This document shows, in pieces, positions 9,547 to 49,195 of a stretch of DNA of 49,386 nucleotides (position 1 is its first letter; the number at the start of each line of letters is the position of its first letter). The notes under the pieces are model-generated. The model was not told the origin of the DNA and ran no database searches. It saw nothing but the letters and a program-made list of their open reading frames with translations. The DNA lies in sequence record SRR31156797_898; one strand, 5' to 3'. The translations under genes and the position numbers were made by a program.

Positions 9547-11778
9547 TCACTTTTTCTTGCTCTGCATGTATTGCCAAAGTGCTCCGCCTTGACGCATGGA
9601 CTTGTTGAGTTCCATTTGAACTGCTTGACTAAATCCTGCGCCTACATTTTTAAGCTGAGAATCTCCATCAACACTTGATGAACCATCTGCATTCACGGTT
9701 ACGTTAATCATTACTGAGCCACCGCCAGTGGCATCCTTGTTACTTACCACTTCTCCACGGCTGTTTGGAAGCATGTACTGCTGACCATTTGCCGCATTGA
9801 ATACTTCTGGCGCTCCGTCTTCGTTAATGCGATACATGCTTCCTGCTTGCACATCGCCGCCATATAGGCGACCACCAGCAATCGCAGTTCCAGCTATGAC
9901 ACCAGCAGAAGCATATCCCATTGCCCTGATCATGTTCGACGTTGCAACAGCACCCATACCCATAACACCAACGTCATGAGCCAATATCTGGTTTGCAGCC
10001 AGCTCTGCAGCGACTATAGCCTGAGCTACCGCAAAGGCTTTCTGTATCGCGAACATGGTTTTATAGCCACTAGACTGCTCATCCATAGACGCCAATACAT
10101 TGGCTGTCATAGCCTGCATAGAGCTAAACAATTGGTTATACATACCAAGCTGAGCCTGTGTAGCGGCCTGTTGGTCTTTGACTTGTTTATCTAGAGCTTT
10201 ATCTTTTTCATCAGCGATTTGCTGATCTATTGCGATTAGGGCATTAGCATGTGTTTCAGCATCACCAATCTCAAGATCTTGGTAATATTGAATCATGTCT
10301 CTTTGCTGTTCTAGGTTGTCTAGAAGAGTCTTATTATCCTCGATGACTGAGCGGCTAACACCAGTAGCCTGCATATCTGGATTTTCTTCGAATGCATCTT
10401 TCTCACCGCTAACTACGAGACTTTTTATAAACTTCTGCGATGCCTCTTTAGATTCTCTCTCTGCCTTAGCTGCCTCACGTTCTGCTGCAGATTTCTCACG
10501 CTTTGATTTCGCTAGCGCCTTTTCAGATTCAGCTTCTTTCTCATTGGCGATTATCTTGTCGTAAGAGGCTTCCATCGATTTAATGGTTTCTGGCGTTGCC
10601 CCCTCTTCTGCTGCATTTTTTAGTGCAATAGCTTTTTCAAGTTCAAGCTGTTTAGAACGTAACTCTTCCGTTCTAACTGATAGCCTCTCAGCATTGTCAG
10701 CCCATTTTTTCTGATTGTTGGCCGCTTTTTCTGCAGCCTTACCAACATCATCAAATTTGATGGTTGACTCATCTAATTTTTTGTTTAGCTCGCCAATGGT
10801 AATTTCACCGAGTTTGTACTGAGCGATTAGATCTGTAATTTGAGAAACTAATCCTCTACCAGCCTCAGTGTTATTAATACCAGCTTTAGTAGCTGCATCT
10901 AATGCAGACTCTAGCTTACCTATTGAACCTGATGGATCTGCTTCAAAGCTTTTTGCAGCCTGACTAAGTTGGATGAATGCTTGATAAGCATCATCTGATT
11001 TATTACCAAACAAATCCATTTGGTAATTAAGGCCGTTGAATTCGCTAATGGTCTCATTTATGCCCTTAGACGCGACCTTCATTGCATTAGCCTGATCGGC
11101 AATAAGGTTTGCTATCTTAACTCTTGCTAACTGATCAGAAACTTGAGCAAGAACTTTCATTTGCTCTGAATAACCAGTAATGCCCTCTGATGAAAGAGTA
11201 ATCGCGGCTTTTACTCGCTCAGTCGCTTTTTCTACATCTTCAAGTGCATCCGTTGTTTTGAATAGATTTGGTATCAGCATTCCAGCCAAAGATGCACCAA
11301 TACCAATTACAGCACCGAGCATAGGAGCACCAAGAACAAAGCCTAAGTCAGCACTCTGAGCTGACAAGGCCAGCATGACATCTTGACCACCTTGGATCTG
11401 ACCAATAAGTTGTTGGAATTGAATCGCAGCTTGACCTGCGTTTCGTCCTATCCCTGCAATTCCAGTTCTTACGCCTGTTGCTGTTTTAGAAAGTTGAATA
11501 TGTCTCTGGTTTAATGAGTCGGTTAGCGCCATCAACCTTTGCATTTTTACAGTTGCTTCTGCATTCACGTTGCCAAACTGGTCAAGAACCACCCCAGCTC
11601 TTGAAATGCTATTTCCAGCTTCGTTGAGTGTTTTTGCGTACTGTCTAACCTGTTGATCTGTTTTAGCCATGACCGTTTGCATTGATTCTAGTGACTTCTT
11701 CATCACAACTGCAGAATCAATTGCCTTCTGAGTATCAGCATCAACAGTGTAATAGACCGTACCAGCATCAATAGCCAT
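9547..11778 (-). CDS. Tape measure protein
   Basis: Long helical Ala/Gln/Lys-rich protein; GGRLYGGDV..YRINEDGAPE motif; lies upstream of M. Confidence 0.9.
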   Translation of the reverse strand: MAIDAGTVYYTVDADTQKAIDSAVVMKKSLESMQTVMAKTDQQVRQYAKTLNEAGNSISRAGVVLDQFGNVNAEATVKMQRLMALTDSLNQRHIQLSKTATGVRTGIAGIGRNAGQAAIQFQQLIGQIQGGQDVMLALSAQSADLGFVLGAPMLGAVIGIGASLAGMLIPNLFKTTDALEDVEKATERVKAAITLSSEGITGYSEQMKVLAQVSDQLARVKIANLIADQANAMKVASKGINETISEFNGLNYQMDLFGNKSDDAYQAFIQLSQAAKSFEADPSGSIGKLESALDAATKAGINNTEAGRGLVSQITDLIAQYKLGEITIGELNKKLDESTIKFDDVGKAAEKAANNQKKWADNAERLSVRTEELRSKQLELEKAIALKNAAEEGATPETIKSMEASYDKIIANEKEAESEKALAKSKREKSAAEREAAKAERESKEASQKFIKSLVVSGEKDAFEENPDMQATGVSRSVIEDNKTLLDNLEQQRDMIQYYQDLEIGDAETHANALIAIDQQIADEKDKALDKQVKDQQAATQAQLGMYNQLFSSMQAMTANVLASMDEQSSGYKTMFAIQKAFAVAQAIVAAELAANQILAHDVGVMGMGAVATSNMIRAMGYASAGVIAGTAIAGGRLYGGDVQAGSMYRINEDGAPEVFNAANGQQYMLPNSRGEVVSNKDATGGGSVMINVTVNADGSSSVDGDSQLKNVGAGFSQAVQMELNKSMRQGGALWQYMQSKKK

Positions 11779-21531: not shown

Positions 21532-23010
21532 TTATCTCAATCGTTTAGGGATCATCATTCCGAGAGCTTGCGGCAATGCGAGTGCGGTTAATGCGTAAAC
21601 CGTTGCGTCAAGTCTGTCTGGTGACTTCTTGGCAGTGGTTGGAACGTATTCCATCATCTGGTTTTCAAGTGTGTATAAGTTACCGCTGTGAGCGACACGA
21701 CCTTGCTCATACAGTGCAGATATTGGCTCTGCCCTAGCAAACTTACCTTTGTTTGCATGGACTCGGATAATGCGCCCCTTAAACCCTGCGTTTTTGAGCG
21801 TATCCTCTGCCATATCTCCGCCTTGGTTGGTTTCGATAACAATAGAGTCTGCATTATGGGTTTCATAAGCGAAGATCGCCTTCTTAGCCCATCCTGCAGG
21901 AGAGAACTTACCGCTGTAATCTGCATCAACACTGAACAAGGCTTTATCACCAGCACCATAAGCACTTGCGACAGAAATACCCGTTTCGTCACTTTCATCG
22001 CTATTTGATGCCTGAGGGTCTATAGCAACTACGGTTCTTGTTCTATCTAGTTCTATTTGAAGCTCATGCGCTGCCGCAATCATTGCCTCATTCCATAAAG
22101 CGCCTTCTTCATTAAATCTTCGTGGTCGCTGCATGTACTGAGCTTCAGCTGACCGACGATGAGAGAACAAAGCTACTCGGTGTGACTCGTTATGCTTAAA
22201 CGGCCACAGCCAACCGTCATCTAATCCATGATCAATTGGTATCGCATGCGTGTTCTCTGGGTAAAGAACCTCATAAGGAAGAGTGTTATCAATGATGACT
22301 GGCAGATTTAAGTGATGCCATTTCTCGCCAGAACCACCACGTAACAGATAACCGCTTAAGTCGTTGTAGTGAATGCGCTGCATGATCACTATCATTGGAG
22401 TGGTTTCTATCGCTAAACGAGACTTAATGGTTTCGTTAAATCGATTATTTACCCCATCCCTGACAACTTCAGAGAATGCATCATCCGGCTTTACCGGATC
22501 GTCAATAATTAGCGCGCCTTGCCAACCGGGTTCCATGTGTCCAGCACGAAAACCAGTAACCTGACCAGCTGCTGATGACGCATAAACACCACCGCCAAAC
22601 TCGTTCCACCACATTGCTTTACTGTCTGCATCATCACGTAGCTTCATAGGCCACATAGATTGATAAGCAGATGACTTAATCACGCCTCTTGCAGTGGATG
22701 AGTTAAGCAATGCTAAGTTGTGTGAATAAGAAAGGTGCATGAACCTAGCGCGATTGTTTAACGCTATTCCGCGCCCCATCATGTTGATGGTTGCCAGTTC
22801 GGTTTTTGTGTAGCCAGGTGGAACGTTTATGATTAGCCGATTAATCTCACCATCGATAACGCGATCAAGCGTTCTTTGAATAACTTCATGGTGAGGCGCG
22901 ACAATCATCTTGCCGCCTGTGCGTTGTTTAAAGAAATAACGTGAAAAGTAAAGGCCGTCTTCTTCGCATTCTATCTTTCTAGCGTAATTCCTTTGCTCAA
23001 CAGTCGTCAT
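21532..23010 (-). CDS. terL: Terminase large subunit
   Basis: INVPPGYTKT Walker A variant, LIIDDP Walker B, AIDP and PDRLDA nuclease motifs. Confidence 0.95.
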   Translation of the reverse strand: MTTVEQRNYARKIECEEDGLYFSRYFFKQRTGGKMIVAPHHEVIQRTLDRVIDGEINRLIINVPPGYTKTELATINMMGRGIALNNRARFMHLSYSHNLALLNSSTARGVIKSSAYQSMWPMKLRDDADSKAMWWNEFGGGVYASSAAGQVTGFRAGHMEPGWQGALIIDDPVKPDDAFSEVVRDGVNNRFNETIKSRLAIETTPMIVIMQRIHYNDLSGYLLRGGSGEKWHHLNLPVIIDNTLPYEVLYPENTHAIPIDHGLDDGWLWPFKHNESHRVALFSHRRSAEAQYMQRPRRFNEEGALWNEAMIAAAHELQIELDRTRTVVAIDPQASNSDESDETGISVASAYGAGDKALFSVDADYSGKFSPAGWAKKAIFAYETHNADSIVIETNQGGDMAEDTLKNAGFKGRIIRVHANKGKFARAEPISALYEQGRVAHSGNLYTLENQMMEYVPTTAKKSPDRLDATVYALTALALPQALGMMIPKRLR

Positions 23011-30363: not shown

Positions 30364-31044
30364 ATGGATATTTATGAAATTAGGCGTCAGCGCCTACTTA
30401 AGCTGAAAGACGAAAGGTGTAACGGTAAGATTGTTACGCTTGCAGAGAAAATCGACACATCTCAATCTTACGTGTCGAGGATGCTTTATTCCCCAGACAA
30501 AGTAGGAAAGAAAAATATATCTGATGTAATGGTTCAAAAAATTACTGATGCTTTTGGGCTAAACAAAGGCTGGCTAGATGGGATTGACCATGATGAAGGA
30601 TTGAATAACGTAACTAGGTTAGATATCCAGCCATCATACAAAGATAAATACCCAATTCTAGGGAAAGTATCAGCCGGTAGGTTCAAGGACGCAGTGCAAA
30701 CATTTGACTTAGAGTATGAGCAGAGCACCGTTAAATGCAGTAATGATTCATTCTGGCTTGTTGTAGACGGGCATTCAATGACAGCACCTCAAGGATCTGG
30801 AATCTCATTTTTAGAGGGTATGCTGATACTGGTTGATCCAGAACGCGAATACTGTCATGGAAATTTTGTCGTTGCTTACTGTGAAGATAAACATATGGCG
30901 ACATTTAAAAAAATCAGCATTGAACCGGAAGGAGTATTTTTGGTTCCTCTTAATCCAGATCCGACTTATAGACGCATAAACATGGCTGACGAGTACTGTG
31001 AGGTTGCAGGAGTAGTTGTCGATGCCAGGTGGAAGATGTTTTAA
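30364..31044 (+). CDS. cI: CI repressor (HTH + S24 peptidase)
   Basis: N-terminal HTH; VSAG cleavage site, VDGHSM Ser motif, ATFKK Lys motif. Confidence 0.95.
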   Translation: MDIYEIRRQRLLKLKDERCNGKIVTLAEKIDTSQSYVSRMLYSPDKVGKKNISDVMVQKITDAFGLNKGWLDGIDHDEGLNNVTRLDIQPSYKDKYPILGKVSAGRFKDAVQTFDLEYEQSTVKCSNDSFWLVVDGHSMTAPQGSGISFLEGMLILVDPEREYCHGNFVVAYCEDKHMATFKKISIEPEGVFLVPLNPDPTYRRINMADEYCEVAGVVVDARWKMF

Positions 31045-31450: not shown

Positions 31451-32149
31451 TTATGCAACAGTAGCTTTAAGAATCCCGAAATCAATTAGCTTTTTCGTCA
31501 ACCACTGCTCACCCTTACCCGTAATTAGCGGCGTGTGGGAAATTCTTGTTTCCCCATTGGCTTCATAGCTCCCCTGTCTCACTTGGAAGTATCCGCGCTC
31601 AATAAACTCTTGGAATGGTAGGTTGTGACGCTCACCGCCAGCCATTAAGATCTTTATTTCTCTAAGTATCGAAAATATCTTGCGAGGTCCAAGACCTACA
31701 GATTTAGCAAAGTTCCCTAACTGAACGCCCTTATCTGCTGATGCTATGCGATCAGCAAATTCAGCCTTAGGTGCAGCTATGGCAAGTTGTCTTTGGGTTT
31801 CTTCGTTCTGTTTCGCAAGCTCAGCGGCAAGCAGTAAAGCTTCTGGAAGTGTTTGAGGGATTTTGAATTGATTGGCTTCTTCAAGTTCTTGCCATCGGTC
31901 TACGAGACGAGCCGTAAATTCTGGTGATAGTTGAGCAACAACAACGTAACTATCTCGCTTAGTAACATGGTAGATGGTTATTGGCTTTCCGCCTCCGGCG
32001 GTCGGTTCCACCGTTGGTGTAATCGAAATAACTAGGCTCGATGCCATTCTCTCCATTGATCGCTTAACGCTGTCATGACGAGAGTTGGTAAGCTCCGCAA
32101 TCTCGCGGCTGCTCATGGTTAGATTTTGGTCGTGTTTAATCATATTCAT
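31451..32149 (-). CDS. Antirepressor (Rha N-terminal + KilA-C/ANT C-terminal)
   Basis: LTMSSREIAELT, PEFTARLVDRWQELE, IPQTLPEALLLAA, APKAEFAD, ITGKGEQWL. Confidence 0.92.
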   Translation of the reverse strand: MNMIKHDQNLTMSSREIAELTNSRHDSVKRSMERMASSLVISITPTVEPTAGGGKPITIYHVTKRDSYVVVAQLSPEFTARLVDRWQELEEANQFKIPQTLPEALLLAAELAKQNEETQRQLAIAAPKAEFADRIASADKGVQLGNFAKSVGLGPRKIFSILREIKILMAGGERHNLPFQEFIERGYFQVRQGSYEANGETRISHTPLITGKGEQWLTKKLIDFGILKATVA

Positions 32150-32639: not shown

Positions 32640-33717
32640 ACCAGTAGTTCGGAATTGCCGAACAACTGGAGGTCACTCCGAGTAACCCAGTGACGGAGGA
32701 CAGAAATTCACTGAAATAGACCTTATTCACCGCTACGGCGACCGGATGTAATGACCTATAGATAATGGGATTTGCACTTGCTGGATGGCTTAACCGAGAG
32801 GATGACCCGATAAGTGAATAAGCCCCGCCAGTCTCGGCGGTGAGGTAGAGACAAAATAGGCTTTGGAAACAGAGCCGATTTGAAAGTGGTCTGTAGTTCA
32901 CTGGTAGAACGACGTTAGCCACGTTGCCAAAGAACGCATGACGGTAGCACCTGAAATGTAATCTTTGGGGGTATGCATGCCTATGATGGTTCAAATCCAT
33001 TCAGACCACTTTCAAATAATCCGAGTTTTCTTGCTGTGATAAGCAGATAGAAAACAAATCTGACTCCGATAATTCGGGTGTGAAGCCAACACATAAAAAT
33101 ACAAAACCTTACTCAGTTGGGAGTAAGCCCAGTAATCACATATAGGTGAAGTGCATTGGCAGTGCGCTGAAAAAGAGCTGGCATCCCGAACAAAGGACGA
33201 AATGTCTCGGATTATTACTAAAGGTGTTTCGGTGAGTGGTTGGAAAATTCCATTAACTGTATAAGTTTTGAAAATTTCAAATAGTCAACCACTCAGCCGA
33301 AGCATCTTGGACATGCTGATATCCATAGACGGTATACGGTGTAGCCATCGGTAATCCGCGCCAGTTCACCACTGCACTGGAAGCTGTAAGCTTAGGTCGT
33401 GAATTAAACCTAAGACGTAGACGAGCAGTAATAATGCTACGGAATGAGCGAGGGATCCTTAACTTCGTGATCATTATGGCGGCGGGAAAGACCGCGAGAT
33501 AATGGGACTTCATCGCCGAAACTCTAAATGAGCATGATGGACGTGTGATTCGAAGCCAGCAACGAGAAGGGCTTGGTCTAAATTGTACAACCCGTGATGG
33601 GGAATGAATCAATCTGACACCTCGGAAAGACGGGGGATTTTGTTTAGTGGTTTTGGACGCGTCGATCAGCAGGGAAACCGTAAGGCTAGGAGCCATCTTT
33701 AAACCACTAAACAAAAT
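32640..33717 (+). ncRNA. Array of structured non-coding RNA modules
   Basis: No plus-strand ORF in the track; consecutive modules closed by 9-22 bp stems. Confidence 0.65.
32878..33017 (+). ncRNA. Giant tRNA-like RNA
   Basis: 16-bp closing stem, D-arm gttc-actggta-gaac, T-arm gatgg-ttcaaat-ccatt, ~75-nt central insert, no encoded CCA tail. Confidence 0.65.
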
Positions 33718-33719
33718 AT

Positions 33720-33791
33720 GCTTCGTTAGCTCAGTGGTAGAGCGGACGGCTTTTAACCGTTAGGTCGCAGGTTCAAATCCTGCACGAAGCT
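33720..33791 (+). tRNA. tRNA-Lys(UUU), variant
   Basis: Full cloverleaf gcttcgt/acgaagc; anticodon arm gacgg-CTTTTAA-ccgtt; T-arm gcagg-ttcaaat-cctgc; 3' TTCA rather than ACCA. Confidence 0.88.
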
Positions 33792-33798
33792 TCAGTTT

Positions 33799-33883
33799 GC
33801 CCCGTATGCCAACACTAGCCTTCTAAGCTAGTACGTAAAAAGTTGGAAGGACGTGAGAGGTTCGATTCCTCTACGGGGTGCCA
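33799..33883 (+). tRNA. Non-canonical tRNA-Arg(UCU)-like RNA lacking a D-arm
   Basis: Acceptor gccccgt/acggggt plus GCCA; T-arm agagg-ttcgatt-cctct; anticodon arm actagc-CTTCTAA-gctagt. Confidence 0.7.
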
Positions 33884-33909
33884 GTTAAACAGCAATTAAG
33901 GATTTAGTC

Positions 33910-34380
33910 ATGGAGATTGATTGGAAGTATTTCAGCCAAACTAATGGCTACAAATCTTTGAAATCTGCTTATATGCGCGATGTTAAAAAAGCTGGCAACG
34001 AAAAGCGTCCAATGCGCAACAAGGATGAATTTTACAAGCGCTTTCAATGGGTAATTAGTCGCTGCATCCATTATGCACATGCACTGAATAAGAAACCTTG
34101 GGAAGTTTTGGATGATTGGGAATCTAAGCGTGATTATTGGTGGTTTAGTTTCTACCAAGATTCAAATCAACGGAAGATTCGAACGGAATCTATATCTCGC
34201 AAACCAATGCATATCAGAGGCATTAAGAAGTATTACAAAAGTGGTCACTTTCCTGATTCAAACACAAGAGTAAACAAAAGAATTGGCGATCACCTTAGAA
34301 GTAAGCGAACTAAAAAGCCTCGTTGGACACCAGAACGCAAAGCTAGACGAGATAAAGCAGCTAAATACAAGAATCTGTAA
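33910..34380 (+). CDS. Basic hypothetical protein
   Basis: 156-aa Lys/Arg/aromatic-rich ORF with AAGGA SD; first protein gene of the pL operon. Confidence 0.75.
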   Translation: MEIDWKYFSQTNGYKSLKSAYMRDVKKAGNEKRPMRNKDEFYKRFQWVISRCIHYAHALNKKPWEVLDDWESKRDYWWFSFYQDSNQRKIRTESISRKPMHIRGIKKYYKSGHFPDSNTRVNKRIGDHLRSKRTKKPRWTPERKARRDKAAKYKNL

Positions 34381-34600
34381 GTTAGAACCTCGAAGGGAAA
34401 GCGCTCATTTGGACGAACAGGTAGAGCTAAGTAATCCTGTTGTGAGCAAGTACCAGATTGGCTGGGGAAAAGCATCTGAACTCTAATAATGATGTGTAAT
34501 ATCCGCCTTGTGTAGACAGAGTAAACCGATACCAGAACACGCCCTCTCTGCTAACGAGATGTCTGTTGTTCTAACACGGCGCTGGTATCAAACCAATTTT

Positions 34601-35202: not shown

Positions 35203-36033
35203 ATGAGTAACATTACATCATTCGAGGAGCGCCACCCCGCTGTATCAAAACGAGGGATTGATGAATCAACGTGGTCAGCGCTGAAGAATAGCGTTTATCC
35301 GGGCGCTAAAGAAGAATCCATCTTAATGGTTATCGACTACTGCCGCGCTCGTAACTTTGACCCTCTTCTAAAGCCTGTCCATATCGTTCCTATGAATGTT
35401 AAGAACTCGCAGACCAACAACAATGAATGGCGTGATGTTGTTATGCCTGGCATTGGTATGTACCGAATTCAAGCAGATAGAAGTGGTACATATGCAGGTT
35501 CAACAGAACCAGAATTTGGTCCACTTGTTTCTATGGATTTTAGGGGCGAAGGAAACCAAGTAGAAACCATCAATTTCCCTGAGTGGTGCAAAATCACTGT
35601 TTACAAAGTCGTTAACGGCAACCCAGTTGCTTTTTCTGCTAAGGAAATGTGGCTGGAAAACTACGCAACAGCTGGGCGAAACACTCAAATCCCAAATGCC
35701 ATGTGGAAAAAGCGGCAATATGCACAGCTGGCTAAATGTACCGAAGCACAAGCACTACGTAAGGCATGGCCTGAAATTGGTCAGCAAGCTACTGCTGAAG
35801 AAATGGAAGGGAAAGATTTGATCATTGAGCATGATGTATCACCAACCAAGTCTCTTCCAAATCAAGCAACTAACTACTTACAAGCTGACTTTGATAAGAA
35901 TTTCGATAAGTGGAAAGAGCTTATCGAGTCAGGTCGTAACACACCAGAACGCATCATTTCTATGGCTGAATCAAAAGGCAAGATGACAGACGAAATGAAA
36001 GCAAAAATTAAGAAGATTAATCAGGAGCAATGA
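35203..36033 (+). CDS. bet: Single-strand annealing recombinase (Bet/RecT family)
   Basis: DYCRARNFDPLLKPVHIVPM, YRIQADRSG, QLAKCTEAQALRKAWP. Confidence 0.92.
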   Translation: MSNITSFEERHPAVSKRGIDESTWSALKNSVYPGAKEESILMVIDYCRARNFDPLLKPVHIVPMNVKNSQTNNNEWRDVVMPGIGMYRIQADRSGTYAGSTEPEFGPLVSMDFRGEGNQVETINFPEWCKITVYKVVNGNPVAFSAKEMWLENYATAGRNTQIPNAMWKKRQYAQLAKCTEAQALRKAWPEIGQQATAEEMEGKDLIIEHDVSPTKSLPNQATNYLQADFDKNFDKWKELIESGRNTPERIISMAESKGKMTDEMKAKIKKINQEQ

Positions 36034-37775
36034 TCATGAAAGTATCAAACGTTAAGTTTCACAACGTTCAACAAGGAACGCCTGAGTGGCATGCTCTTCG
36101 TGACTCTGTTGATTTCACTGCTTCTGAAGTTTCTGCGGCTCTTGGGTGTTCACCATATAAAACACGCGATCAGCTGATGCATGAAAAAGCGACCGGAATT
36201 AAACCAGAAGTATCAAGTTATCAAGAAAAGATATTTGCTGATGGTCACCGCTTTGAAGAGTTTGCTCGAGCGATTCTAGAAAACCGCTTAGGTGAAGAAT
36301 TGTACCCAACGACTATCACTGGTGAATGTGGTGGACTTACCCTACTCGCTTCGCTTGATGGTTTAACCATGGATGGCGTTTTAGCTTTTGAGCACAAGTC
36401 ACCAAACAGCAAAGTTGTTGCTGCTATCCATGCTGAAAAACTCGATGACCATTACAACTACCAAATGGAGCAGCAACTTCTTCTATCTGGTGCGGCATCA
36501 TGTAAGTTCGTTGCTAGTGACGGCACAGAAGATAACTGGAACGAGCTTGAATACAAACCAAACAAAGCACTCATTAAGAAAATGCTTGCAGGTTTAAAAC
36601 AGTTCAAAGCCGACTTAGAAGAATACAAAACCAAGCTTGCTAATGGTGAAGTTTCTCAACAGTCTAAACCTGAAGTCGTTGCAGAAGTCATTCAAGACCT
36701 TCCTGCTATCAGCTACAAGATGAACGGCCTAGCGATTAACAGCAACCTCGAAGAGTACAAATCAAAAGCACTCGAATTGGTTGAGCAATCCAAGAAGAAG
36801 CTGGAAACAGATCAGGACTTTGCCAATGCTGAAAACATGGTCAAAGTATTTAAGTCTGCCGAGGATAAGCTAGGTTTAATGTCTCAGCAGGTACTTGGTG
36901 AAGTTGAAAGCATCGATAAGTTTGTCAAAGACCTTGGCTTTATCAGCGAGAACATTCGTCAAGCCCGTCTAGGTTTAGATAAGCAGGTGAAACTTCGCAA
37001 GGAAGAGATTAAAACCGAGATTGTTGTTGCGGCTAAGAACGAGCTCAATACTCTTATCAACGAAGCATCAACCAAGTACAACGTTAGATTCAATATCACT
37101 GCTGACTTTGCTGGTGCCATTAAAGGCAAACGCAACATCGAAAGCATGCGCAGCGCCATTAGTGAAGAGCTAGCGAACGCTAAGATCACCCTTTCTGAAC
37201 AAAAAGATATTGTTCAAACCAACCTAGACCACGTTAAACAGCATCAAGAGTATAAGTTCCTGTTTAATGACTGGTCGGTTATTGCTTTTAAACCTGCTGA
37301 TGATTTCCAGACTTTGGTTAAGCTTCGCATTTCTGAGCATAAAGAAGCTGAAGAGAAGCGACTAGAGCAAGAGCGTGAACGTATTCGCCAAGAAGAAGCC
37401 GACAAGGCCAAGCTTGAAGCAGAAGAAAAGACCAAGCTCGAAGAGGCTGAAAAGCTAGCCTGTAGCTCTAACGGATCAATTGCTGAAGCTCAAAGACTTG
37501 GCAAGGCAGAATCACAACTTACTCATGAAGTTGTTCAGCAATCTACCACTCAACCAAGCCGACTAGACCAAGCTCGTCAAGTAATGCAACAAGCAGAAAC
37601 GGCTCCAGTTGCTTCTGTTGAACGCGCAGAACGTTCAGACGAAATGATTAGCTTATCTGTGAAAGAGTACAACGAGCTAATGAGTAAAGCTAACTTACTC
37701 GAAGCCCTGTACGCAGCTGGCGTTGATAACTGGGATGGATACAGTGAAGCCATGGCAATGGTTTCTGCGGCATAA
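36030..37775 (+). CDS. YqaJ/lambda-Exo-type exonuclease with long coiled-coil extension
   Basis: QGTPEWHALR, TASE, GHRFE, ASLDG, FEHK and YQMEQQL motifs. Confidence 0.9.
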   Translation: MIMKVSNVKFHNVQQGTPEWHALRDSVDFTASEVSAALGCSPYKTRDQLMHEKATGIKPEVSSYQEKIFADGHRFEEFARAILENRLGEELYPTTITGECGGLTLLASLDGLTMDGVLAFEHKSPNSKVVAAIHAEKLDDHYNYQMEQQLLLSGAASCKFVASDGTEDNWNELEYKPNKALIKKMLAGLKQFKADLEEYKTKLANGEVSQQSKPEVVAEVIQDLPAISYKMNGLAINSNLEEYKSKALELVEQSKKKLETDQDFANAENMVKVFKSAEDKLGLMSQQVLGEVESIDKFVKDLGFISENIRQARLGLDKQVKLRKEEIKTEIVVAAKNELNTLINEASTKYNVRFNITADFAGAIKGKRNIESMRSAISEELANAKITLSEQKDIVQTNLDHVKQHQEYKFLFNDWSVIAFKPADDFQTLVKLRISEHKEAEEKRLEQERERIRQEEADKAKLEAEEKTKLEEAEKLACSSNGSIAEAQRLGKAESQLTHEVVQQSTTQPSRLDQARQVMQQAETAPVASVERAERSDEMISLSVKEYNELMSKANLLEALYAAGVDNWDGYSEAMAMVSAA

Positions 37776-39090: not shown

Positions 39091-39324
39091 ATGAAAAACA
39101 AACTTTCTGATTTAAATAATCATTTGTTTGCTCAGCTTGAGCGACTTTGTGAAGAAGATTTAGTAGAAGATGAATCGAAACTAAAGCTAGAGCTGGAGCG
39201 AACAAAGGGTGTGAAATCCATTGCTCAGGAAATTATATCAAATGGTCGTTTAGCATTAGACGCTCAAACTGAACTTGGTGGTCGCATGGGAGGTAATAAG
39301 CCTGAAATGCTAGAGGTGAAGTAA
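39091..39324 (+). CDS. Conserved phage protein preceding HNH
   Basis: MKNKLSDLNNHLFAQLERL; GGTAACGACC-ATG start. Confidence 0.8.
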   Translation: MKNKLSDLNNHLFAQLERLCEEDLVEDESKLKLELERTKGVKSIAQEIISNGRLALDAQTELGGRMGGNKPEMLEVK

Positions 39325-40094
39325 TGAGATTCACCTATTCAAAAGAGCACTTAGCTTTTATAAAAAAAGCTTTCAAAAAAATGAGCGTTAAGGATTTAAC
39401 CGTTGCTTTTAACGCTAAGTTCAACCTGGATAAAACAGAGCAGCAAATCAGGTCAGCGATTAAGAACAACAAGTTTACATGCGGTAGAAAACAAGGTGAG
39501 TTGACCAAAGGTAAATATCGCGACTACACCGATGAGCAAGCGAAGTTTATAAAAGCTGGGTATAAAAAATGGGATATTGCTGAACTAACAGAAAGGTTTA
39601 ACGAAAAGTTTGGAACATCAAAGACGTTTAGCCAAATCCGTTGTTTTACTCGAAATCACGGTATTACATCGGGTAGAACGGGATTCTTTCCAAAAGGTCA
39701 TGTTCCTTTTAATGCCGGCACAAAAGGGATAATGAAGCCAAATAGCGGCTCGTTTAAGAAAGGGAATATTCCAGTAAATCATAAGCCAGTTGGTTCTGAG
39801 CGAGTTAACGTTGAAGGTTATATCGAGATAAAGATACTCGAGCCAAACGTATGGGACCTGAAACAAAGAGTAGTATACGAAAAGGAACATGGTCCAATAC
39901 CCGATGGTCACAATGTTCGCTTCCGTGACAACAACCGGCTTAACTGTTCACCAGACAATTTGTTTCTTGTTAATGGTCTAGAGAATGTCTTTCTTAACCG
40001 CCGCTACAAACTTACCGATCAACCAATGGAGCTAAAAGATACCTTTATTCTTTTAGCTCGCATCGATGCAAAGACAAAATCGTTAGATGCTTAA
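39324..40094 (+). CDS. HNH endonuclease-like protein with repeated N-terminal helical domains
   Basis: FKKGNIPVNHKPVGSER; HGPIPDGHNVRFRDNNRLNCSPDNL. Confidence 0.85.
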   Translation: MRFTYSKEHLAFIKKAFKKMSVKDLTVAFNAKFNLDKTEQQIRSAIKNNKFTCGRKQGELTKGKYRDYTDEQAKFIKAGYKKWDIAELTERFNEKFGTSKTFSQIRCFTRNHGITSGRTGFFPKGHVPFNAGTKGIMKPNSGSFKKGNIPVNHKPVGSERVNVEGYIEIKILEPNVWDLKQRVVYEKEHGPIPDGHNVRFRDNNRLNCSPDNLFLVNGLENVFLNRRYKLTDQPMELKDTFILLARIDAKTKSLDA

Positions 40095-40110
40095 ATAGGT
40101 AACGACCAAA

Positions 40111-41613
40111 ATGCTAAGACCAAATGAAATTGTTGTAGATAACTTCGCGGGTGGTGGCGGTGCATCAACTGGAATGGAGTTGGGCTTAAGCCGTCATGTT
40201 GATATTGCTATCAACCACGATCCAGACGCAATTGACATGCACAAGATGAATCATCCTGAGACGAAGCATTATTGTGAATCTGTATGGGATGTTGATCCGG
40301 TTAAAGCATGCGCTGGACGCCCTGTCGGATTAGCTTGGTTTTCTCCAGATTGTAAGCACTTTTCAAAAGCTAAAGGCAATCGACCTGTTGATAAAAATAT
40401 TCGCGGATTAGCATGGGTTGCTATACGTTGGGCTGCTCTTGTACCTGTTCGTGTTTTTATGTTGGAAAATGTCGAAGAGTTTCTTACATGGGGACCAGTG
40501 GTAGATACCGGAGATGGGAAATTCAAACCGCGCCCTGATCGCAAGGGTGAAACGTTTGATGCGTTCGTGAAAGTTCTTACTACTGGGTTAGAACCGAATC
40601 ACCCTGCTTGGAATGAAATCAAAGAAGCTCTTGGTGATGATTTCCCTTATGACAAGTTGGTCAAAGGGTTAGGTTATGACATTGACTACCGAGTGCTTCG
40701 CGCCTGTGATTACGGTGCACCAACTATTCGTAAACGTTTCTTCTTAGTCGCTCGTAATGACAAACAGCCAATCGCATGGCCAGAGCCTACTCATGGCGAA
40801 GGATTACTTCCTTATGTCACCGCGGCAGACATCATCGATTGGTCAATTCCGGTTAAATCTATCTTTGGGCGCAAGAAGCCATTGGTAGAAAACACCATGA
40901 AGCGAATAGCTAAAGGGTTAGAGAAATTTGTATTAAACAACGACAACCCTTTCATTGCTCCCAGTGAATGTACGGTTCCGTTTATTACTGAACATGCAAA
41001 TGCATCTAACCAGCGAAACATGCCAGCTGACGAACCATTGAGAACAATATGCGCTCAAGTGAAAGGCGGTCATTTTGCTCTTGTTACTGCATTTATCGCT
41101 CGTCATTTCACAGATGGTCCATCGGCATGCATAAACAAGCCACTACCAACAGTAACGACGGTTGATCACAATGCGTTAGTTACTAGCCATATGGTTAAAC
41201 TCCGTGGAACGAATATCGGTCATGGTACTGATGAACCTGTACACACCATTTCAGCCGGTGGCTTACATATTGGTGAAGTAAGAGCATTCCTATTGAAGTA
41301 CTACGGAACGAGCTTTGCTGAAGGTTGTGATACGCCAATAGGTACGGTGACAACCAAAGACCGATTTGGGCTTGTTACTGTGTACGGTGAACACTATCAA
41401 ATCGTAGATATTGGTATGCGAATGCTAGAGCCCCACGAACTGTTTGCAGGTCAAGGTTTTCCGTCTGACTACAAAATATCTCATCACAGCAGTGGTAAGA
41501 AACGATCTAAATCAAGCCAAGTTGCTCGATGCGGCAATGCTGTTTGTCCTCCTGTCGCACAAGCATTAGTTGAAGCAAACATTCAATCAGCACCAAAAAC
41601 AAAAGCGGCATAG
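40111..41613 (+). CDS. DNA cytosine-C5 methyltransferase
   Basis: FAGGGG, SPDCKHFS, ENV, RKRFF, GNAVCP motifs. Confidence 0.95.
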   Translation: MLRPNEIVVDNFAGGGGASTGMELGLSRHVDIAINHDPDAIDMHKMNHPETKHYCESVWDVDPVKACAGRPVGLAWFSPDCKHFSKAKGNRPVDKNIRGLAWVAIRWAALVPVRVFMLENVEEFLTWGPVVDTGDGKFKPRPDRKGETFDAFVKVLTTGLEPNHPAWNEIKEALGDDFPYDKLVKGLGYDIDYRVLRACDYGAPTIRKRFFLVARNDKQPIAWPEPTHGEGLLPYVTAADIIDWSIPVKSIFGRKKPLVENTMKRIAKGLEKFVLNNDNPFIAPSECTVPFITEHANASNQRNMPADEPLRTICAQVKGGHFALVTAFIARHFTDGPSACINKPLPTVTTVDHNALVTSHMVKLRGTNIGHGTDEPVHTISAGGLHIGEVRAFLLKYYGTSFAEGCDTPIGTVTTKDRFGLVTVYGEHYQIVDIGMRMLEPHELFAGQGFPSDYKISHHSSGKKRSKSSQVARCGNAVCPPVAQALVEANIQSAPKTKAA

Positions 41614-41623
41614 GAAACGACCA

Positions 41624-42274
41624 ATGAACCAATACGCTCGATCGCTGCTAGAAGTGCAGCAACAACCTTCCCATAAGCTGAAAGAAATTGGCGACCAATG
41701 GGAAACACCAAAGGCTCTCGCGTGGGGCCTTTTTAGTACCTTCAATTCACGCCTTGGCTCTATCGTTCTCGATATCTTTGCGGACGATTGCAATGCCCTG
41801 CTTCCGAATTACTACACCGCCAAAGATAACGCTCTGGTGCAAAACCTAGCAGCTGATTTGAAGAAGATTGGTGGAAGTGCTGCATTTGCGAATCCTCCCT
41901 ACTCTCGCCCATTCATTGACGATGAGCAGTACATCACAGGTATGACTCACATCATTGATTGGTGCCTAAAGCAGCGCGAACAAGGCGCAAAAATCATGCT
42001 TCTGATTAAAGCTGCTACTTCCGAAAAATGGTTTACGGACAAAGCCGACTTTATTCAGTACATAGAAGGTCGAATCGGGTTTGAGGCTCCTAGTTGGTAT
42101 AAGCCGGCAACGGATAGAGACAAACCAAGTTCTGCAGGCTTTGCATCTGCTGTGATGATTTTCGACAGTGAATGGCGATGGGAACGACGACCAGTAGAGC
42201 GATTGAGTCGTGATGACTTACTTGCTCAAGGCAACGTTATTTTGCAAATGATAGATAAGCAGGTGACGGCATGA
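41624..42274 (+). CDS. Phage N6-adenine methyltransferase (T1 Dam-like family)
   Basis: DQWETP, LDIFA, NPPYS, GRIGF; start reassigned by the GGAAACGACCA-ATG motif. Confidence 0.9.
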   Translation: MNQYARSLLEVQQQPSHKLKEIGDQWETPKALAWGLFSTFNSRLGSIVLDIFADDCNALLPNYYTAKDNALVQNLAADLKKIGGSAAFANPPYSRPFIDDEQYITGMTHIIDWCLKQREQGAKIMLLIKAATSEKWFTDKADFIQYIEGRIGFEAPSWYKPATDRDKPSSAGFASAVMIFDSEWRWERRPVERLSRDDLLAQGNVILQMIDKQVTA

Positions 42275-43103
42275 GCGATAAACTATTTACACCAGTATTA
42301 CGCTATCACGGTGGTAAGTTTCGACTAGCTAAATGGATAACTGGATTCTTCCCAGAACATCATTGCTATGTTGAACCTTTCTCCGGTGCAGCATCTGTTC
42401 TCCTTCAAAAAGAACGTTCTCATGGCGAAGTGTATAACGACCTTGATAGCGACATCGTAAATCTTTTCAAGGTGCTCCGTGACGAACAGCAATCTAAACG
42501 TTTGATAGAGCTCCTTCACCTAACTCCATACAGTAGAGAAGAGTTCTACCTGGCATATGAAAAAACCGAAGATGCTATCGAGAAAGCAAGAAGGACTGTT
42601 GTTCGGTCAGCTATGGGGTTTGGTTCCGGTGCCGCTACTTTTCACAAAACTGGTTTCCGTTGTGAAGCTAAGCGCCAGTACAACACAAGCGCTCATGTTT
42701 GGGAAAAATACCCAGATGTCATCCAGTACGTATGCCAACGTTTGAAAGGTGTGAACATCGAGAACCGACCTGCTATCGAGTGCATTAACTATCACGACTC
42801 TGAGCAAACCCTATCTATGTTGATCCGCCTTACGTCCCAGACTCACGAGACAGCCGATACGCTGGGTCAATTTACCAGCACGAAATGACCGAACAGGATC
42901 ATGAATCATTATTGAAATCGATTCTTGAGCTGAAAGGTATGGTCATCATTTCCGGTTATGACTCCGACTTGTATAACAACTATCTGGCCAGTTGGAGAAA
43001 AGAAGAAAAGAGCGCTCGTATTTCTGCTGGTCGTGGAACTGGCAAACGTATCGAGTGTTTATGGATTTCACCAAGTTGCGAACGTGAAACGGAGGCAGCA
43101 TGA
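42271..43103 (+). pseudogene. D12-class adenine methyltransferase with a 1-bp frameshift
   Basis: LRYHGGK and YVEPFSGAAS in the first ORF; YVDPPY at 42816-42833 is in the frame of ORF 42885..43103. Confidence 0.85.
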
Positions 43104-47810: not shown

Positions 47811-47996
47811 ATGCCAAGAGCAGCCGTGATCACGCTTAAAAAACACGCCTCCGATATCGGTTATAGCCCGAAAACAATCACCAATCGAATTCACGAAGGC
47901 TATTACCCTCCCGGAATATTTTACAAAGACAAAGGCCAGTGGCTAGTAGATACTGAGGAATGGGATAGATGGCACCGAAGCAACAACAAGCACTAG
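47811..47996 (+). CDS. xis: Excisionase
   Basis: 61-aa winged-helix-like ORF overlapping the int start. Confidence 0.75.
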   Translation: MPRAAVITLKKHASDIGYSPKTITNRIHEGYYPPGIFYKDKGQWLVDTEEWDRWHRSNNKH

Positions 47997-49195
47997 ACTT
48001 GCCAACCGGCATTGAACTTAACGGCAACTCACTTCGAATAGTTTTCCACTATCTTGGTAAACGATACCGAGAAACGTTAGGAATACCAGCTACTAAAAAG
48101 AACATCACATTCGCCAAGCAAAAGCGCGAGTCCATTCTTTATGAAATAAAGGTTGGATCATTCAACTACGCTTACCACTTCCCAAATTCAAAGCATGCTA
48201 CAGGCAAACCTCGTTCTAAGGACATTGGAGAACTTGCTGAAACCTATCTTGCTAGTAAGAAGCCAAACGTTAGAGGATCAACATTCAGGAAGTATTCCAC
48301 CGTATTACGTACATTCGTTTCAATTTACGGAAGCAAGCGACACTGTAACACCCTGTCACCTAGATCACTTGAGCAGTTTAGAAACGAACTAGCAGCAGGA
48401 AGAGCGGCTAGAACCGTCAACCGATACCTTGTCACAATAAAGTCTTTCATTAATTGGCTGCACAAAATGGAATACACAGATAAAGACTTCTCTCATCATT
48501 TATTAAGAGTGAAGGAGTACGAGTCTGATATTCGGCCGTTCTCAATTGATGAGTTTAACCAGGTGATATCGACGTATAGACACGAACAGCACAAGAACAT
48601 ATTTACGCTATTCGTTTATACAGGCCTTCGCTCTGGTGAATTGTGCGCGCTTGCTTGGGAAGATGTCGATTTTGATAAGAAGACAATCACCGTTAGGCGA
48701 TCAACCTATGACAATCGAGGCTTGAAAACGACGAAGACGGATAAGGAGAGAGTTATTGATTTGATGCCACCAGCTTATGAGGCACTAAAGTCTCAAATGA
48801 AACTCACATACCTTTACCCGGTAAAAAATCACGATGTTGAACTCCCTGATAAAACATTCAGGAAAGATAAGATCCGCTTTGTGTTTAATCCAAAAGCGGT
48901 GAAGCATCAAAAAGGCAGTGAATTTGATTACTATTGCAAACATGCATTAGGTAGAAGTTGGAGATTGCACTGTAAGCAAGCTGGAGTTGAACATCGGAAC
49001 CAATACCAACTTAGGCATACTTACGCCAGTTGGATGATTACCTTTGCCAACGTAAACGTGAGTTACTTAGCTCAACAAATGGGACATGCAAACATAACCA
49101 TGATCGCCAAGGTCTATGGTAAGTGGCTGACTGAGGCCAACAAGAAAGAGTCAAATAGGGCGTGGGAGGAATTGAAGAAAAGCCATAATTTATAA
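47969..49195 (+). CDS. int: Tyrosine integrase with arm-binding N-terminus
   Basis: YTGLRSGELCALAW, YQLRHTYAS, QMGH..VY; N-terminal LRIVFHYLGKRYRETL. Confidence 0.97.
   Translation: MAPKQQQALDLPTGIELNGNSLRIVFHYLGKRYRETLGIPATKKNITFAKQKRESILYEIKVGSFNYAYHFPNSKHATGKPRSKDIGELAETYLASKKPNVRGSTFRKYSTVLRTFVSIYGSKRHCNTLSPRSLEQFRNELAAGRAARTVNRYLVTIKSFINWLHKMEYTDKDFSHHLLRVKEYESDIRPFSIDEFNQVISTYRHEQHKNIFTLFVYTGLRSGELCALAWEDVDFDKKTITVRRSTYDNRGLKTTKTDKERVIDLMPPAYEALKSQMKLTYLYPVKNHDVELPDKTFRKDKIRFVFNPKAVKHQKGSEFDYYCKHALGRSWRLHCKQAGVEHRNQYQLRHTYASWMITFANVNVSYLAQQMGHANITMIAKVYGKWLTEANKKESNRAWEELKKSHNL

Follow-up and report, generated by a model that had tools for sequence, protein, structure and literature searches.

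A tRNA-like sequence with a UCU anticodon and no D hairpin raises the question of whether it is the remnant of a tRNA gene, a mimic of a tRNA, or a tRNA that still decodes, and of what takes the place of the missing arm. This study was concerned with such a sequence in a window of 49,386 nucleotides (the window being the whole stretch of DNA that was analysed, sequence record SRR31156797_898). To our knowledge, the translating tRNAs of bacteria and their phages have all been taken to be cloverleaves, and D-armless tRNAs have, as far as we know, been regarded as peculiar to animal mitochondria. The element described here is probably a working, non-cloverleaf tRNA-Arg that reads AGA, and by its sequence matches it belongs to a family that is widespread in phages, prophages and bacterial tRNA arrays.

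Architecture of the element in the window

Reading of the sequence confirmed an arginine-type tRNA-like element at 33799-33883 on the + strand, the coordinates given in the original prediction. An acceptor stem, an anticodon arm with UCU, an ordinary T arm and an encoded GCCA can all be recognized, and the D hairpin is absent. When the acceptor stem is read as 7 bp, just 9 nt (33806-33814) are left before the anticodon stem, and thus the element has no D hairpin. The parts of the element and its upstream neighbor are as follows.

33720..33791, + strand: canonical tRNA-Lys(UUU), 7 nt upstream of the element (ARAGORN; Rfam RF00005, 75.4 bits)
33799..33806, + strand: acceptor stem, 5' strand, 8 nt; pairs with 33872-33879
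33807..33808, + strand: linker TG, 2 nt, from the acceptor stem to the D-like helix; variable across the family
33809..33813, + strand: D-like helix, 5' strand CCAAC; pairs with 33842-33846 and reaches the anticodon stem via A33814 alone
33814, + strand: A at the nucleotide-26 position; faces T33832 (position 44)
33815..33831, + strand: anticodon arm, with a 5-bp stem (33815-19 with 33827-31) and the 7-nt loop CTTCTAA (33820-26)
33833..33836, + strand: variable-region stem, 5' strand ACGT; pairs with 33851-33854
33837..33841, + strand: A-rich linker AAAAA; 3-9 nt long and 69% A in the family (n=86)
33842..33846, + strand: D-like helix, 3' partner strand GTTGG; sits in the loop of the variable-region stem
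33847..33851, + strand: D-loop-like segment AAGGA; GG is the candidate for G18 G19 and A33851 the candidate for A20
33851..33854, + strand: variable-region stem, 3' strand ACGT; pairs with 33833-33836
33857..33871, + strand: T arm, with stem GAGG (33857-60) and CCTC (33868-71) and loop TTCGATT (33861-67)
33872..33883, + strand: acceptor stem, 3' strand (33872-79), discriminator G33880 and encoded CCA (33881-83)

The anticodon UCU (TCT in the DNA) occupies 33822-33824 and reads AGA. At the top of the acceptor stem is a G1.U72 wobble, and A8:U65 forms its eighth pair. The variable region is 23 nt long and has its own stem. The GTTGG strand lies inside the loop of that stem, and therefore the two helices cross and form a pseudoknot. 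The GGA that follows this strand would be equivalent to positions 18-20 of an ordinary tRNA. Pairing of CCAAC at 33809-13 with GTTGG at 33842-46 had been predicted from the window alone, and the positions proved exact. The MFE fold forms this helix as an extension of the anticodon arm (-27.6 kcal/mol, z = -2.23; 3 of 200 shuffles folded as well), and the helix covaries in the 86 sequences described below. The tRNA-Lys(UUU) and the element are probably co-transcribed; the same pair with equal spacing is also present in a relative, L089.

The element is missed by tRNA finders and by annotation. In the window, ARAGORN called the neighboring tRNA-Lys(UUU) and did not call the element at 33799-33883, and Rfam at its gathering thresholds matched only the tRNA-Lys, with no RF00005 match to the element. 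One element was called by ARAGORN among 116 family loci, and none of the element matches among the 60 phage matches listed carried a tRNA annotation. At relaxed Rfam thresholds the best match of the element was tRNA-Sec (RF01852), with which it shares the length of the acceptor stem and of the variable region and perhaps a sixth pair in the anticodon stem (A33814:T33832). However, tRNA-Sec and an opal suppressor are ruled out by the anticodon, which is UCU and not UCA, and by the score, which is 31.5 bits against a cut-off of 47. In addition, the element is split 8/4, whereas bacterial tRNA-Sec is split 8/5, and it has no D hairpin. The absence of a call by ARAGORN or Rfam also fits a tRNA-Arg pseudogene in decay whose D arm was deleted, as do the divergent copies with ACG and UCG anticodons, which look imperfect. 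The comparison of family members bears directly on this reading.

Comparative structure and distribution of the family

Eighty-six distinct sequences were compared. The loop CTTCTAA, the GG..GG and the greater part of the T loop were prescribed by the pattern used to collect them, and invariance at those positions is therefore by construction. A model-based alignment was used, as a MAFFT version misaligned the variable stem between sequences of different length classes. The alignment model left out the D-like helix and contained the variable-region stem, and the counts are thus biased toward the variable stem.

All five helices covary, including the D-like helix and the variable-region stem that crosses it. 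Paired cells amounted to 96.2%, against 67.7% in shuffles, and the covariation score was 0.756, against 0.189 when shuffled, with none of 500 shuffles reaching it; slid controls were 40-55% paired. The eight pairs of the acceptor stem (98.4% paired) and the five pairs of the anticodon stem (99.5% paired) all covary, and the T stem is 98.5% paired. The D-like helix, although outside the alignment model, is 97.0% paired and has changes on both sides at three of its five pairs. At each of these three variable pairs, 4 or 5 types of pair occur, and the types seen at the central pairs are CG, GU, AU, UA and GC. Since the helix covaries across 86 distinct homologues, the CCAAC:GTTGG pairing goes beyond chance. 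The variable-region stem is the weakest of the helices, at 84.2% paired with its fourth pair unpaired in 30 of 86 sequences, and its pair types are CG37/AU24/GC19, CG53/GC21/AU7/UA5 and CG39/UA13/GC8. At the junction with the anticodon stem, A26 occurs in 73 and T44 in 72 of the 86 sequences.

An 8/4 reading of the acceptor and T stems had been raised as a possibility, and the family agrees with it. The eighth acceptor pair is GC in 66 sequences, UA in 7, AU in 3, CG in 1 and UG in 1, and is unpaired in 8, and the base before the T stem, an A in 67 of 86, cannot pair with C65. The 12-bp acceptor/T branch is mainly split 8/4; the split is 9/3 in a subgroup judged by eye (L092, L095, L014, L102, L077, L086 and L063) and 7/5 in a second subfamily. 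The proposal that a D-loop-like segment has moved into the variable region also held. Directly after the partner strand comes GG, which the pattern forced, followed by A in 85 of 86 sequences; the A itself was not forced, and it persists in sequences in which pairing with its stem partner is impossible (30/86). The anticodon loop is tRNA-like, with U33, a purine at 37, a 7-nt loop and a 5-bp stem, partly forced by the pattern. The T-loop consensus of tRNAs is of the TTCRANY type, and the T loop of the family fits it, again partly by force of the pattern. CCA is encoded in 69 of 86 members, and the discriminator is G in 31, U in 28, A in 26 and C in 1, with G in the window. The aligned sequences thereby define the parts that are kept, namely a 12-bp acceptor/T stack (8/4), the anticodon arm, the T loop and, for the most part, an encoded CCA. 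The D hairpin, missing in all 86 members, is replaced in this alignment by a 5-nt strand after the acceptor stem, paired with the variable region and crossing the variable stem as a pseudoknot.

These results bear out the original view of a selected alternative fold rather than decay. Near and far relatives keep CCNNN:NNNGG through compensatory changes. A normal D arm in close relatives had been named as the finding that would count against a selected fold, and no relative has one at this site. Compensatory changes are present in every helix, across unrelated phage groups and bacterial phyla, and a pseudogene is accordingly extremely improbable. A simple deletion derivative is ruled out by the covariation together with the absence of any relative with a D arm.

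The same fold was sought in other phages, as had been suggested, and blastn with the element alone gave matches in 382 phage records. Of these, 334 were Vibrio and 34 Acinetobacter records, and the others included Aeromonas, Escherichia, Salmonella and Salicola. When IMG/VR was scanned with a pattern, at least 108 stretches were obtained, and a pattern scan of 185,579 species genomes yielded 51, of which 33, in bacterial genomes, were upheld by the family model at >=45 bits. The nearest provirus record, G001, has an element identical to that of the window, and so does the species genome of Vibrio injensis, the likely host. The same architecture was found across unrelated phage groups and bacterial phyla. 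An unbiased model scan covered 151 genomes of one bacterial order and found the element in only 9 of them, and the element is thus accessory in that order. Eight of the nine bacterial loci lie within dense, accessory-looking arrays of 6-15 tRNA genes per 3 kb. The element might have been a lineage-wide chromosomal tRNA, the standard tRNA-Arg(UCU) of Verrucomicrobiales and Pyrinomonadaceae. This was rejected on these two counts and because each of the five bacterial carrier genomes tested also has a canonical-looking tRNA-Arg(UCU).

In public runs, relatives of the element with different flanks were present in alkali-sediment and wastewater samples, in assembled contigs, which give no view of a transcript, its ends or its level. 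Of the seven rows from that search, five had a small share, just one of these being registered as RNA, and two were unlabelled; all four runs examined consisted of assembled contigs.

Arginine anticodons and the case for AGA decoding

The anticodons seen were those of arginine only: UCU and, rarely, CCU, UCG and ACG. Model matches free of the UCU pattern carried CCU (L056:286-373, 81 bits) and ACG (L090:375-461, 43 bits), and the nine model matches in the 151 genomes of the bacterial order carried UCU in eight cases and UCG in one. In scans with a fixed T arm, three stretches had a first anticodon base other than T, all of them CCU, and none had another second base or another third base. In the ACG copy the GGA motif is missing and in the UCG copy the T loop is odd, and either copy may be defective.

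The bacterial arginine identity elements given in PMC9976931 are A20, C35, U/G36 and A/G/U73, and A20 is named there as the principal one for the arginyl-tRNA synthetase of E. coli. The family has C35 in 86 of 86 sequences and U/G36 in 86 of 86, in a loop that was forced by the collecting pattern, and a non-C discriminator in 85 of 86. The family has no D loop in which A20 could be placed directly, and the A after GG (85/86) would be its spatial match.

Charging with an amino acid other than arginine is a second way in which the element might decode AGA, for example by seryl-tRNA synthetase via the long variable region, as in allo-tRNAs, with AGA being recoded. G73 is a serine identity element, and the discriminator in the window is G. 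The 8/4 and 9/3 architecture and the long variable region are hallmarks of allo-tRNAs, including (8/4) tRNA-Ser (PMC5389517), and the D-armless mitochondrial tRNA-Ser carries UCU (PMC7609411). However, charging that is blind to the anticodon should permit the anticodon to drift, yet only arginine anticodons were seen, with both codon boxes of arginine represented. At the discriminator, G, U and A replace one another freely, the variable-stem loop is engaged in the D-like helix and does not project freely, and AGA is frequent in the phage's own genes, so many proteins would be altered. Recoding is therefore very unlikely.

The genomic setting is that of other tRNA genes, with at least one canonical tRNA gene in the 300-400 nt flank at 49 of 116 loci. 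Among seven complete carrier phage genomes checked, a canonical tRNA-Arg(UCU) was not found in six. For example, Vibrio phage GRLPWR has 21 tRNAs and Aeromonas phage AhSzw-1 has 34, and in each the canonical tRNA-Arg called by ARAGORN is ACG only; the element has the anticodon UCU in the former and occurs with UCU and with CCU in the latter. A check by pattern in another four phage genomes revealed no convincing canonical tRNA of the UCU type. Some carriers have another decoder of AGA besides the element. In Aeromonas phage Aszh-1 a canonical tRNA-Arg(UCU) lies near it, both within 1.3 kb, a canonical tRNA-Arg(UCU) is also present in V. injensis, the likely host, the five bacterial genomes noted above each hold a canonical-looking one, and in the array L218 a canonical UCU tRNA adjoins the UCG copy of the element. 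AGA accounts for 24.5% of the arginine codons in the window (11.7 per 1000 codons) and for 4.8% (2.1 per 1000) in 60 kb of the V. injensis chromosome, which makes it about five times more common in the genes of the window than in those of the likely host.

In the remaining reading the element mimics a tRNA without decoding. It would be a decoy or sponge for a host nuclease directed against arginine tRNAs, or for another tRNA-binding defence or modification factor, and would spare the tRNA-Arg of the host or phage. Several observations are consistent with this. First, tRNAs of phages can overcome defences that cleave tRNAs: cells are rescued from PARIS AriB by a phage tRNA-Lys(UUU) and from P2-OLD by phage tRNA-Thr(UGU), for which lambdoid phage 21 is one source (PMC12445682). 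The window phage has two tRNA-like genes only, Lys(UUU) and the element. Secondly, several carriers also hold a canonical tRNA-Arg(UCU), and a need for extra decoding is not obvious there. Third, a strictly arginine-like anticodon arm would also suit a bait for a nuclease that reads arginine anticodon loops. However, a decoy needs neither the covarying 12-bp stack nor the encoded CCA, the non-C discriminator or the A20-like base, and no other UCU tRNA was found in six of the seven complete carrier phage genomes. In addition, the known rescue tRNAs are described in PMC12445682 as replacement decoders, not sponges, and no tRNA-Arg(UCU)-specific defence system was found in the literature searched. 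A decoy is thus unlikely, and of the two functions put forward originally an AGA decoder is favored because of the arginine-only anticodons, the tRNA clusters, the failure to find a canonical UCU tRNA in most carrier phages and the codon usage.

Relation to known tRNAs and proposed mechanism

Two canonical tRNA-Arg(UCU) copies, from Aszh-1 (L004:2805-2881) and V. injensis (L193), offer the closest comparison. The element has in common with them UCU in a CUUCUAA loop, a 5-bp anticodon stem, a canonical-looking T loop, the CCA end and placement in phage tRNA clusters, and its GGA motif resembles their D-loop G18 G19 A20. It differs in that the D hairpin is missing, the D-like helix uses a strand of the variable region, the variable region of 23 nt has a stem, the split is 8/4 and not 7/5, and position 8 is paired.

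In D-armless mitochondrial tRNA-Ser the anticodon helix is thought to be lengthened by pairs between the connector that replaces the D arm and the variable region. The animal mitochondrial tRNA-Ser(UCU/GCU), for example that of Ascaris suum, shares with the element the lack of a D hairpin and the UCU anticodon (PMC7609411). However, that tRNA is described there as short and flexible, with a reduced T arm and dedicated factors, whereas the element is longer than a normal tRNA and has a complete T loop, the GG motif and a second, crossing stem. Its carriers are phages and ordinary bacteria, not organelles.

The (8/4) and (9/3) allo-tRNAs have in common with the element the split of the 12-bp branch, the long variable region, the occurrence in bacteria and phages, and discovery via similarity to tRNA-Sec (PMC5389517). 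By the title and abstract of that paper, allo-tRNAs are cloverleaves, whereas the element family has no D hairpin, and in place of a free long variable arm the element has a variable-stem loop that pairs with the post-acceptor strand. The phage (8/4) and (9/3) cases named in that source are Ser and His, and the words 'UCU' and 'pseudoknot' are absent from its main text. Nuclease-resistant phage tRNAs are also phage-borne, some of them in lambdoid phages that have only one or two tRNA genes, and owing to changes in sequence or stem they are poorly cut by nucleases and still decode (PMC12445682, PMC10264068, PMC11555353). In the cases described in these sources, a few nucleotides are altered or the anticodon stem is shortened within a cloverleaf, whereas in the element the whole core is rebuilt; no nuclease matching a rebuilt core is known from the literature searched. 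A description of the fold was not found in the openly available literature searched, and this shape of arginine tRNA, which is not a cloverleaf, seems undescribed so far.

For the preferred reading, a decoding tRNA-Arg, the following mechanism is proposed. The D-like helix would stack on the anticodon stem at the usual site of the D stem, the GG would dock on the T loop like G18 and G19, and the A after GG would act as A20. The A20-like base, C35 and U36 would jointly enable ArgRS to aminoacylate the RNA. The replacement of U8 by a paired base counts against this reading. EF-Tu recognizes the 12-bp acceptor/T branch (PMC5389517), and EF-Tu and the ribosome may tolerate the RNA because its outer dimensions are kept. 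As AGA is frequent in phage genes and rare in the host, the element would provide this temperate phage with a decoder for it. A more speculative suggestion is that, with its rebuilt core, the RNA may be a poorer substrate than the tRNA-Arg of the host for some nuclease or modification enzyme directed at tRNAs.

A broader interpretation, for which the sequence evidence leaves the balance about even, is that the family forms a new class of translating tRNA. In this class the D-stem strand and D loop would lie in the variable region and the core would be a pseudoknot. It would serve arginine codons in many phages and mobile bacterial tRNA arrays while being invisible to current finders and annotation, and the rebuilt core may be a means of escaping some factor, of host or phage, whose target is the core of ordinary tRNA-Arg. 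If the element is charged and used, the tRNA core could be rewired through a D-stem partner and D loop in the variable region and still satisfy RNase P, ArgRS, EF-Tu and the ribosome, and the rewired core would be a natural experiment on what the tRNA core is for. The tRNA inventories of hundreds of phage genomes, in which a decoder of AGA/AGG now looks missing, would be corrected. A tRNA with an odd core that is accepted by host machinery may also interest genetic-code engineers. Lastly, the element would then be a concrete candidate for large structural change as a route round tRNA-directed immunity.

The element and its homologues

The element was read again from the sequence, and every coordinate that the original prediction had assigned to it was correct. 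Its parts are listed below.

Parts of the element (window coordinates, strand, sequence reading)
33799-33806, +, acceptor 5' strand, 8 nt
between the acceptor strand and CCAAC, +, linker of two bases
33809-13, +, CCAAC
33814, +, single A before the anticodon stem
33822-24, +, anticodon UCU, in a 5-bp anticodon stem with loop CTTCTAA
33832, +, single T after the anticodon stem
33833-36, +, ACGT, then five A's
33842-46, +, GTTGG, then AAGG
33851-54, +, ACGT, then GA
33857-71, +, T arm with 4-bp stem and loop TTCGATT
33872-79, +, acceptor 3' strand, then discriminator G and CCA

ARAGORN did not call the element in the window, its sole call being a tRNA-Lys(UUU) at 33720-33791, seven bases upstream. 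Rfam at gathering thresholds did not report the element and gave this tRNA-Lys as its one match; at relaxed thresholds, the top match of the element was the selenocysteine tRNA model (31.5 bits, cut-off 47).

A sensitive blastn search of phage records with the tRNA-Lys and element region (33700-33900) as query identified full-length homologues in unrelated phages, namely the T5-like Vibrio phages GRLPWR and Gary, Salicola phage SCTP-2 (440 kb), Acinetobacter phage ME3 and Aeromonas phage Aszh-1, none of which is annotated at the element's place. With the element alone as query, 382 phage records matched, some probably by short matches to T arms of ordinary tRNAs, and no tRNA annotation occurred among the 60 matches listed. 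A degenerate pattern identified at least 108 stretches in IMG/VR; these comprise at least 99 distinct sequences, a few of which are false or divergent. The same pattern identified 51 stretches in 185,579 prokaryote species represented by one genome each, of which a covariance model confirmed 33 (threshold 45 bits). Among the confirmed copies are one in Vibrio injensis M12-1144 with exactly the sequence of the window's element, one in Spirabiliibacterium pneumoniae, and groups of carriers among metagenome-assembled Verrucomicrobiales and Pyrinomonadaceae genomes. A 44.7-kb provirus, the nearest of the virus records compared, likewise contains an identical element.

Covariation and topology of the fold

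The covariance model, R1, was built on 14 gap-free sequences and contains the acceptor, anticodon, variable and T stems; the CCAAC:GTTGG helix (CCNNN:NNNGG in the family) was deliberately excluded. Alignment to R1 gave 94 matches, 86 of them distinct, and for the pair counts the excluded helix was entered as a pseudoknot. Overall, 96.2% of family cells were paired, compared to 67.7% in shuffles and 40-55% in a control with partners slid by 1-3 columns. The covariation score was 0.756 (control 0.189) and was matched by 0 of 500 shuffles. Decay of a tRNA, which the original prediction had opposed to a selected fold, is excluded by this covariation and has a negligible probability.

The predicted CCAAC:GTTGG pairing forms in the minimum-free-energy fold of the element, where it extends the anticodon arm (-27.6 kcal/mol, z = -2.23), and the helix is 97.0% paired across the 86 sequences. 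Its three inner pairs are CG36/GU21/AU10/UA10/GC4, AU50/GC14/CG9/GU6/UA6 and CG73/AU6/UG2/UA1. Pairing in the variable-region stem reaches 84.2%, with outer pairs CG37/AU24/GC19 and CG53/GC21/AU7/UA5 and a frequently open innermost pair. Since the partner strand of the D-like helix sits between the two strands of this stem, the helices cross and the family supports a pseudoknot; we infer that both helices form simultaneously in one molecule. Ahead of the partner strand, the linker spans 3-9 nt and has an A content of 69%.

In normal tRNAs, position 26 connects the D-stem 3' strand (22-25) to the anticodon stem. Read by connectivity, CCAAC, which is followed by a single A and the 5' strand of the anticodon stem, matches this strand, and GTTGG stands in for the 5' strand of the D stem (10-13), with a short loop containing GG and then A following it, like that of a normal D arm. 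This A follows GG in 85 of 86 sequences and is retained even in the 30 whose stem partner cannot pair. The family therefore agrees well with the proposed relocation of a D-loop-like sequence to the variable region. GGA is also found in the D loops of the two canonical tRNA-Arg(UCU) genes compared, and in the element it may be spatially equivalent to G18, G19 and A20.

In 66 of 86 sequences, a G at position 8 forms a pair with C65 (a compensatory A:U in the window). The base immediately 5' of the T stem, by contrast, is an A in 67 of 86, which is unable to pair with C65. Thus, the branch is 8/4 in most sequences, an arrangement the original prediction had raised. Seven loci (L092, L095, L014, L102, L077, L086 and L063) appear by eye to be 9/3, with a 9-bp acceptor and a 3-bp T stem, and have no encoded CCA, which suggests hosts that would add CCA post-transcriptionally. 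A second, rarer subfamily is 7/5 (L024:387-467(-), L024:246-324(-), L027:387-467(-) and L099:287-368(-)) and has UCU and CCU forms. In its members, TA is followed by a GCTC-like strand contiguous with the anticodon stem, and a conserved AACTGGATGGAAGAT-like loop comes after the variable-region partner strand; the helix is of the same kind and there is no crossing stem. The acceptor and T stems sum to 12 bp in all three groups, and PMC5389517 describes the 12-bp branch as the part recognised by EF-Tu.

Allo-tRNAs share the 8/4 and 9/3 branches, but the D hairpin is missing in the element family, and the main text of the allo-tRNA paper (PMC5389517) mentions neither UCU nor a pseudoknot. Animal mitochondrial tRNA-Ser resembles the element family in having no D hairpin and in its UCU anticodon (PMC7609411), whereas the element family has a full T loop, an added crossing stem and more than normal tRNA length. 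The full-text literature searched, of incomplete coverage, yielded no prior description of this fold.

Anticodons and arginine identity

The collecting pattern fixed UCU, so family members outside that constraint were sought separately. Model searches identified a second copy in Aeromonas phage AhSzw-1, with CCU (81 bits) and immediately upstream of the UCU one, and a weaker ACG copy adjoining a UCU copy at locus L090. In IMG/VR scans with the commonest T arm fixed, a stricter frame that fits 47 of 86 family sequences, another first anticodon base occurred in three stretches, all CCU, and another second or third base in none. When 151 genomes from a single bacterial order were scanned with the model, nine hits were obtained (8 UCU and 1 UCG). 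Five whole phage genomes contained only five UCU copies and one CCU copy at 81 bits or more; the next-best hits, at 28 bits or less, are likely ordinary tRNAs.

All four anticodons are arginine anticodons, and they cover both arginine codon boxes. Charging with another amino acid is disfavoured by this restriction and is very improbable. The bacterial arginine identity set is given in PMC9976931 as A20, C35, U/G36 and A/G/U73. Of these, C35 and U/G36 occur in every family sequence; the discriminator is G31/U28/A26/C1, and the A after GG is conserved.

Genomic context and decoding

PHROG matches identify the window as a lambdoid temperate phage or prophage, with the tRNA-Lys and the element at the head of its rightward recombination operon.

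PHROG matches in the window
3699-7118, central tail fibre
9547-11778, tape measure
21532-23010, large terminase
30364-31044, CI-like repressor
31451-32149, anti-repressor
35203-36033, RecT-like
36030-37775, RecE-like exonuclease
47969-49195, integrase

The tRNA-Lys gene is canonical but lacks an encoded CCA, and 7 nt separate it from the element; the two genes occur together at the same spacing in relative L089. Directly upstream of this gene is a perfect 17-bp inverted repeat (33637-33653 / 33701-33717, 47-nt spacer), which overlaps the end of a minus-strand TTG-start ORF (33277-33714) and may be a regulatory hairpin or operator. Just before the repeat are a terminator-like hairpin (33620-33635, +) and, after it, a T-rich tract. 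A search of 33000-34400 gave no sigma-70-like promoter. Approximately residues 533-579, at the C-terminus of the RecE-like ORF, match PHROGs annotated as host RecBCD nuclease inhibitor, suggesting a fused Gam-like tail. At 39324-42888, an HNH endonuclease ORF precedes three ORFs matching DNA methyltransferase PHROGs, one of which has a phosphoadenosine phosphosulfate reductase-like family as its best match.

A canonical tRNA gene lies within the short flank at 49 of 116 family loci, and eight of nine bacterial loci (L212-L220, from the bacterial order scanned above) are embedded in dense arrays with 6-15 tRNA genes per 3 kb. ARAGORN called 21 canonical tRNAs in GRLPWR and 34 in AhSzw-1. In both, tRNA-Arg(ACG) is the only canonical arginine tRNA, and therefore the element fills the UCU (and CCU) slot. 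A heuristic pattern, which did recover the known canonical UCU copy of Aszh-1, found nothing convincing in SCTP-2, ME3 and two complete IMG/VR genomes. In AhSzw-1, ARAGORN also called tRNAs at 60691-60765 and 61597-61670, one with anticodon CUA, labelled Pyl and so amber-suppressor-like, and one with undetermined anticodon; at L020:208-292, upstream of the element, it called a UUA-anticodon "stop" tRNA.

AGA use in crude ORF sets (ATG start, at least 150 aa): share of Arg codons; per 1000 codons
Window: 24.5%; 11.7
V. injensis chromosome, 60 kb sampled: 4.8%; 2.1
GRLPWR: 27%; 11.7
AhSzw-1: 17.5% (AGG 9.7%); 7.8

Several findings argue against a simple "needed decoder." First, V. injensis carries its own canonical tRNA-Arg(UCU), and each of five bacterial carriers has a canonical-looking one. 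Secondly, Aszh-1 has both the element and the canonical form. Third, in array L218 a canonical tRNA-Arg(UCU) adjoins the UCG copy, which has an unusual T loop and no GGA. Lastly, the element is accessory in bacteria, being carried by 9 of the 151 genomes scanned in one order.

That the element is instead a decoy that does not decode, directed at some tRNA-directed factor, is possible but rather unlikely. Phage tRNAs, including one of a lambdoid phage, rescue cells from PARIS AriB and P2-OLD, and phage tRNA-Lys(UUU) does so from PARIS AriB (PMC12445682). In these rescues the phage tRNA is a resistant replacement decoder. No system specific for tRNA-Arg(UCU) was found in the literature searched. 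Judged by sequence comparison, the element is probably a translating tRNA-Arg with a rebuilt core. Resistant replacement decoding is compatible with this reading, and resistance would then explain the odd core.
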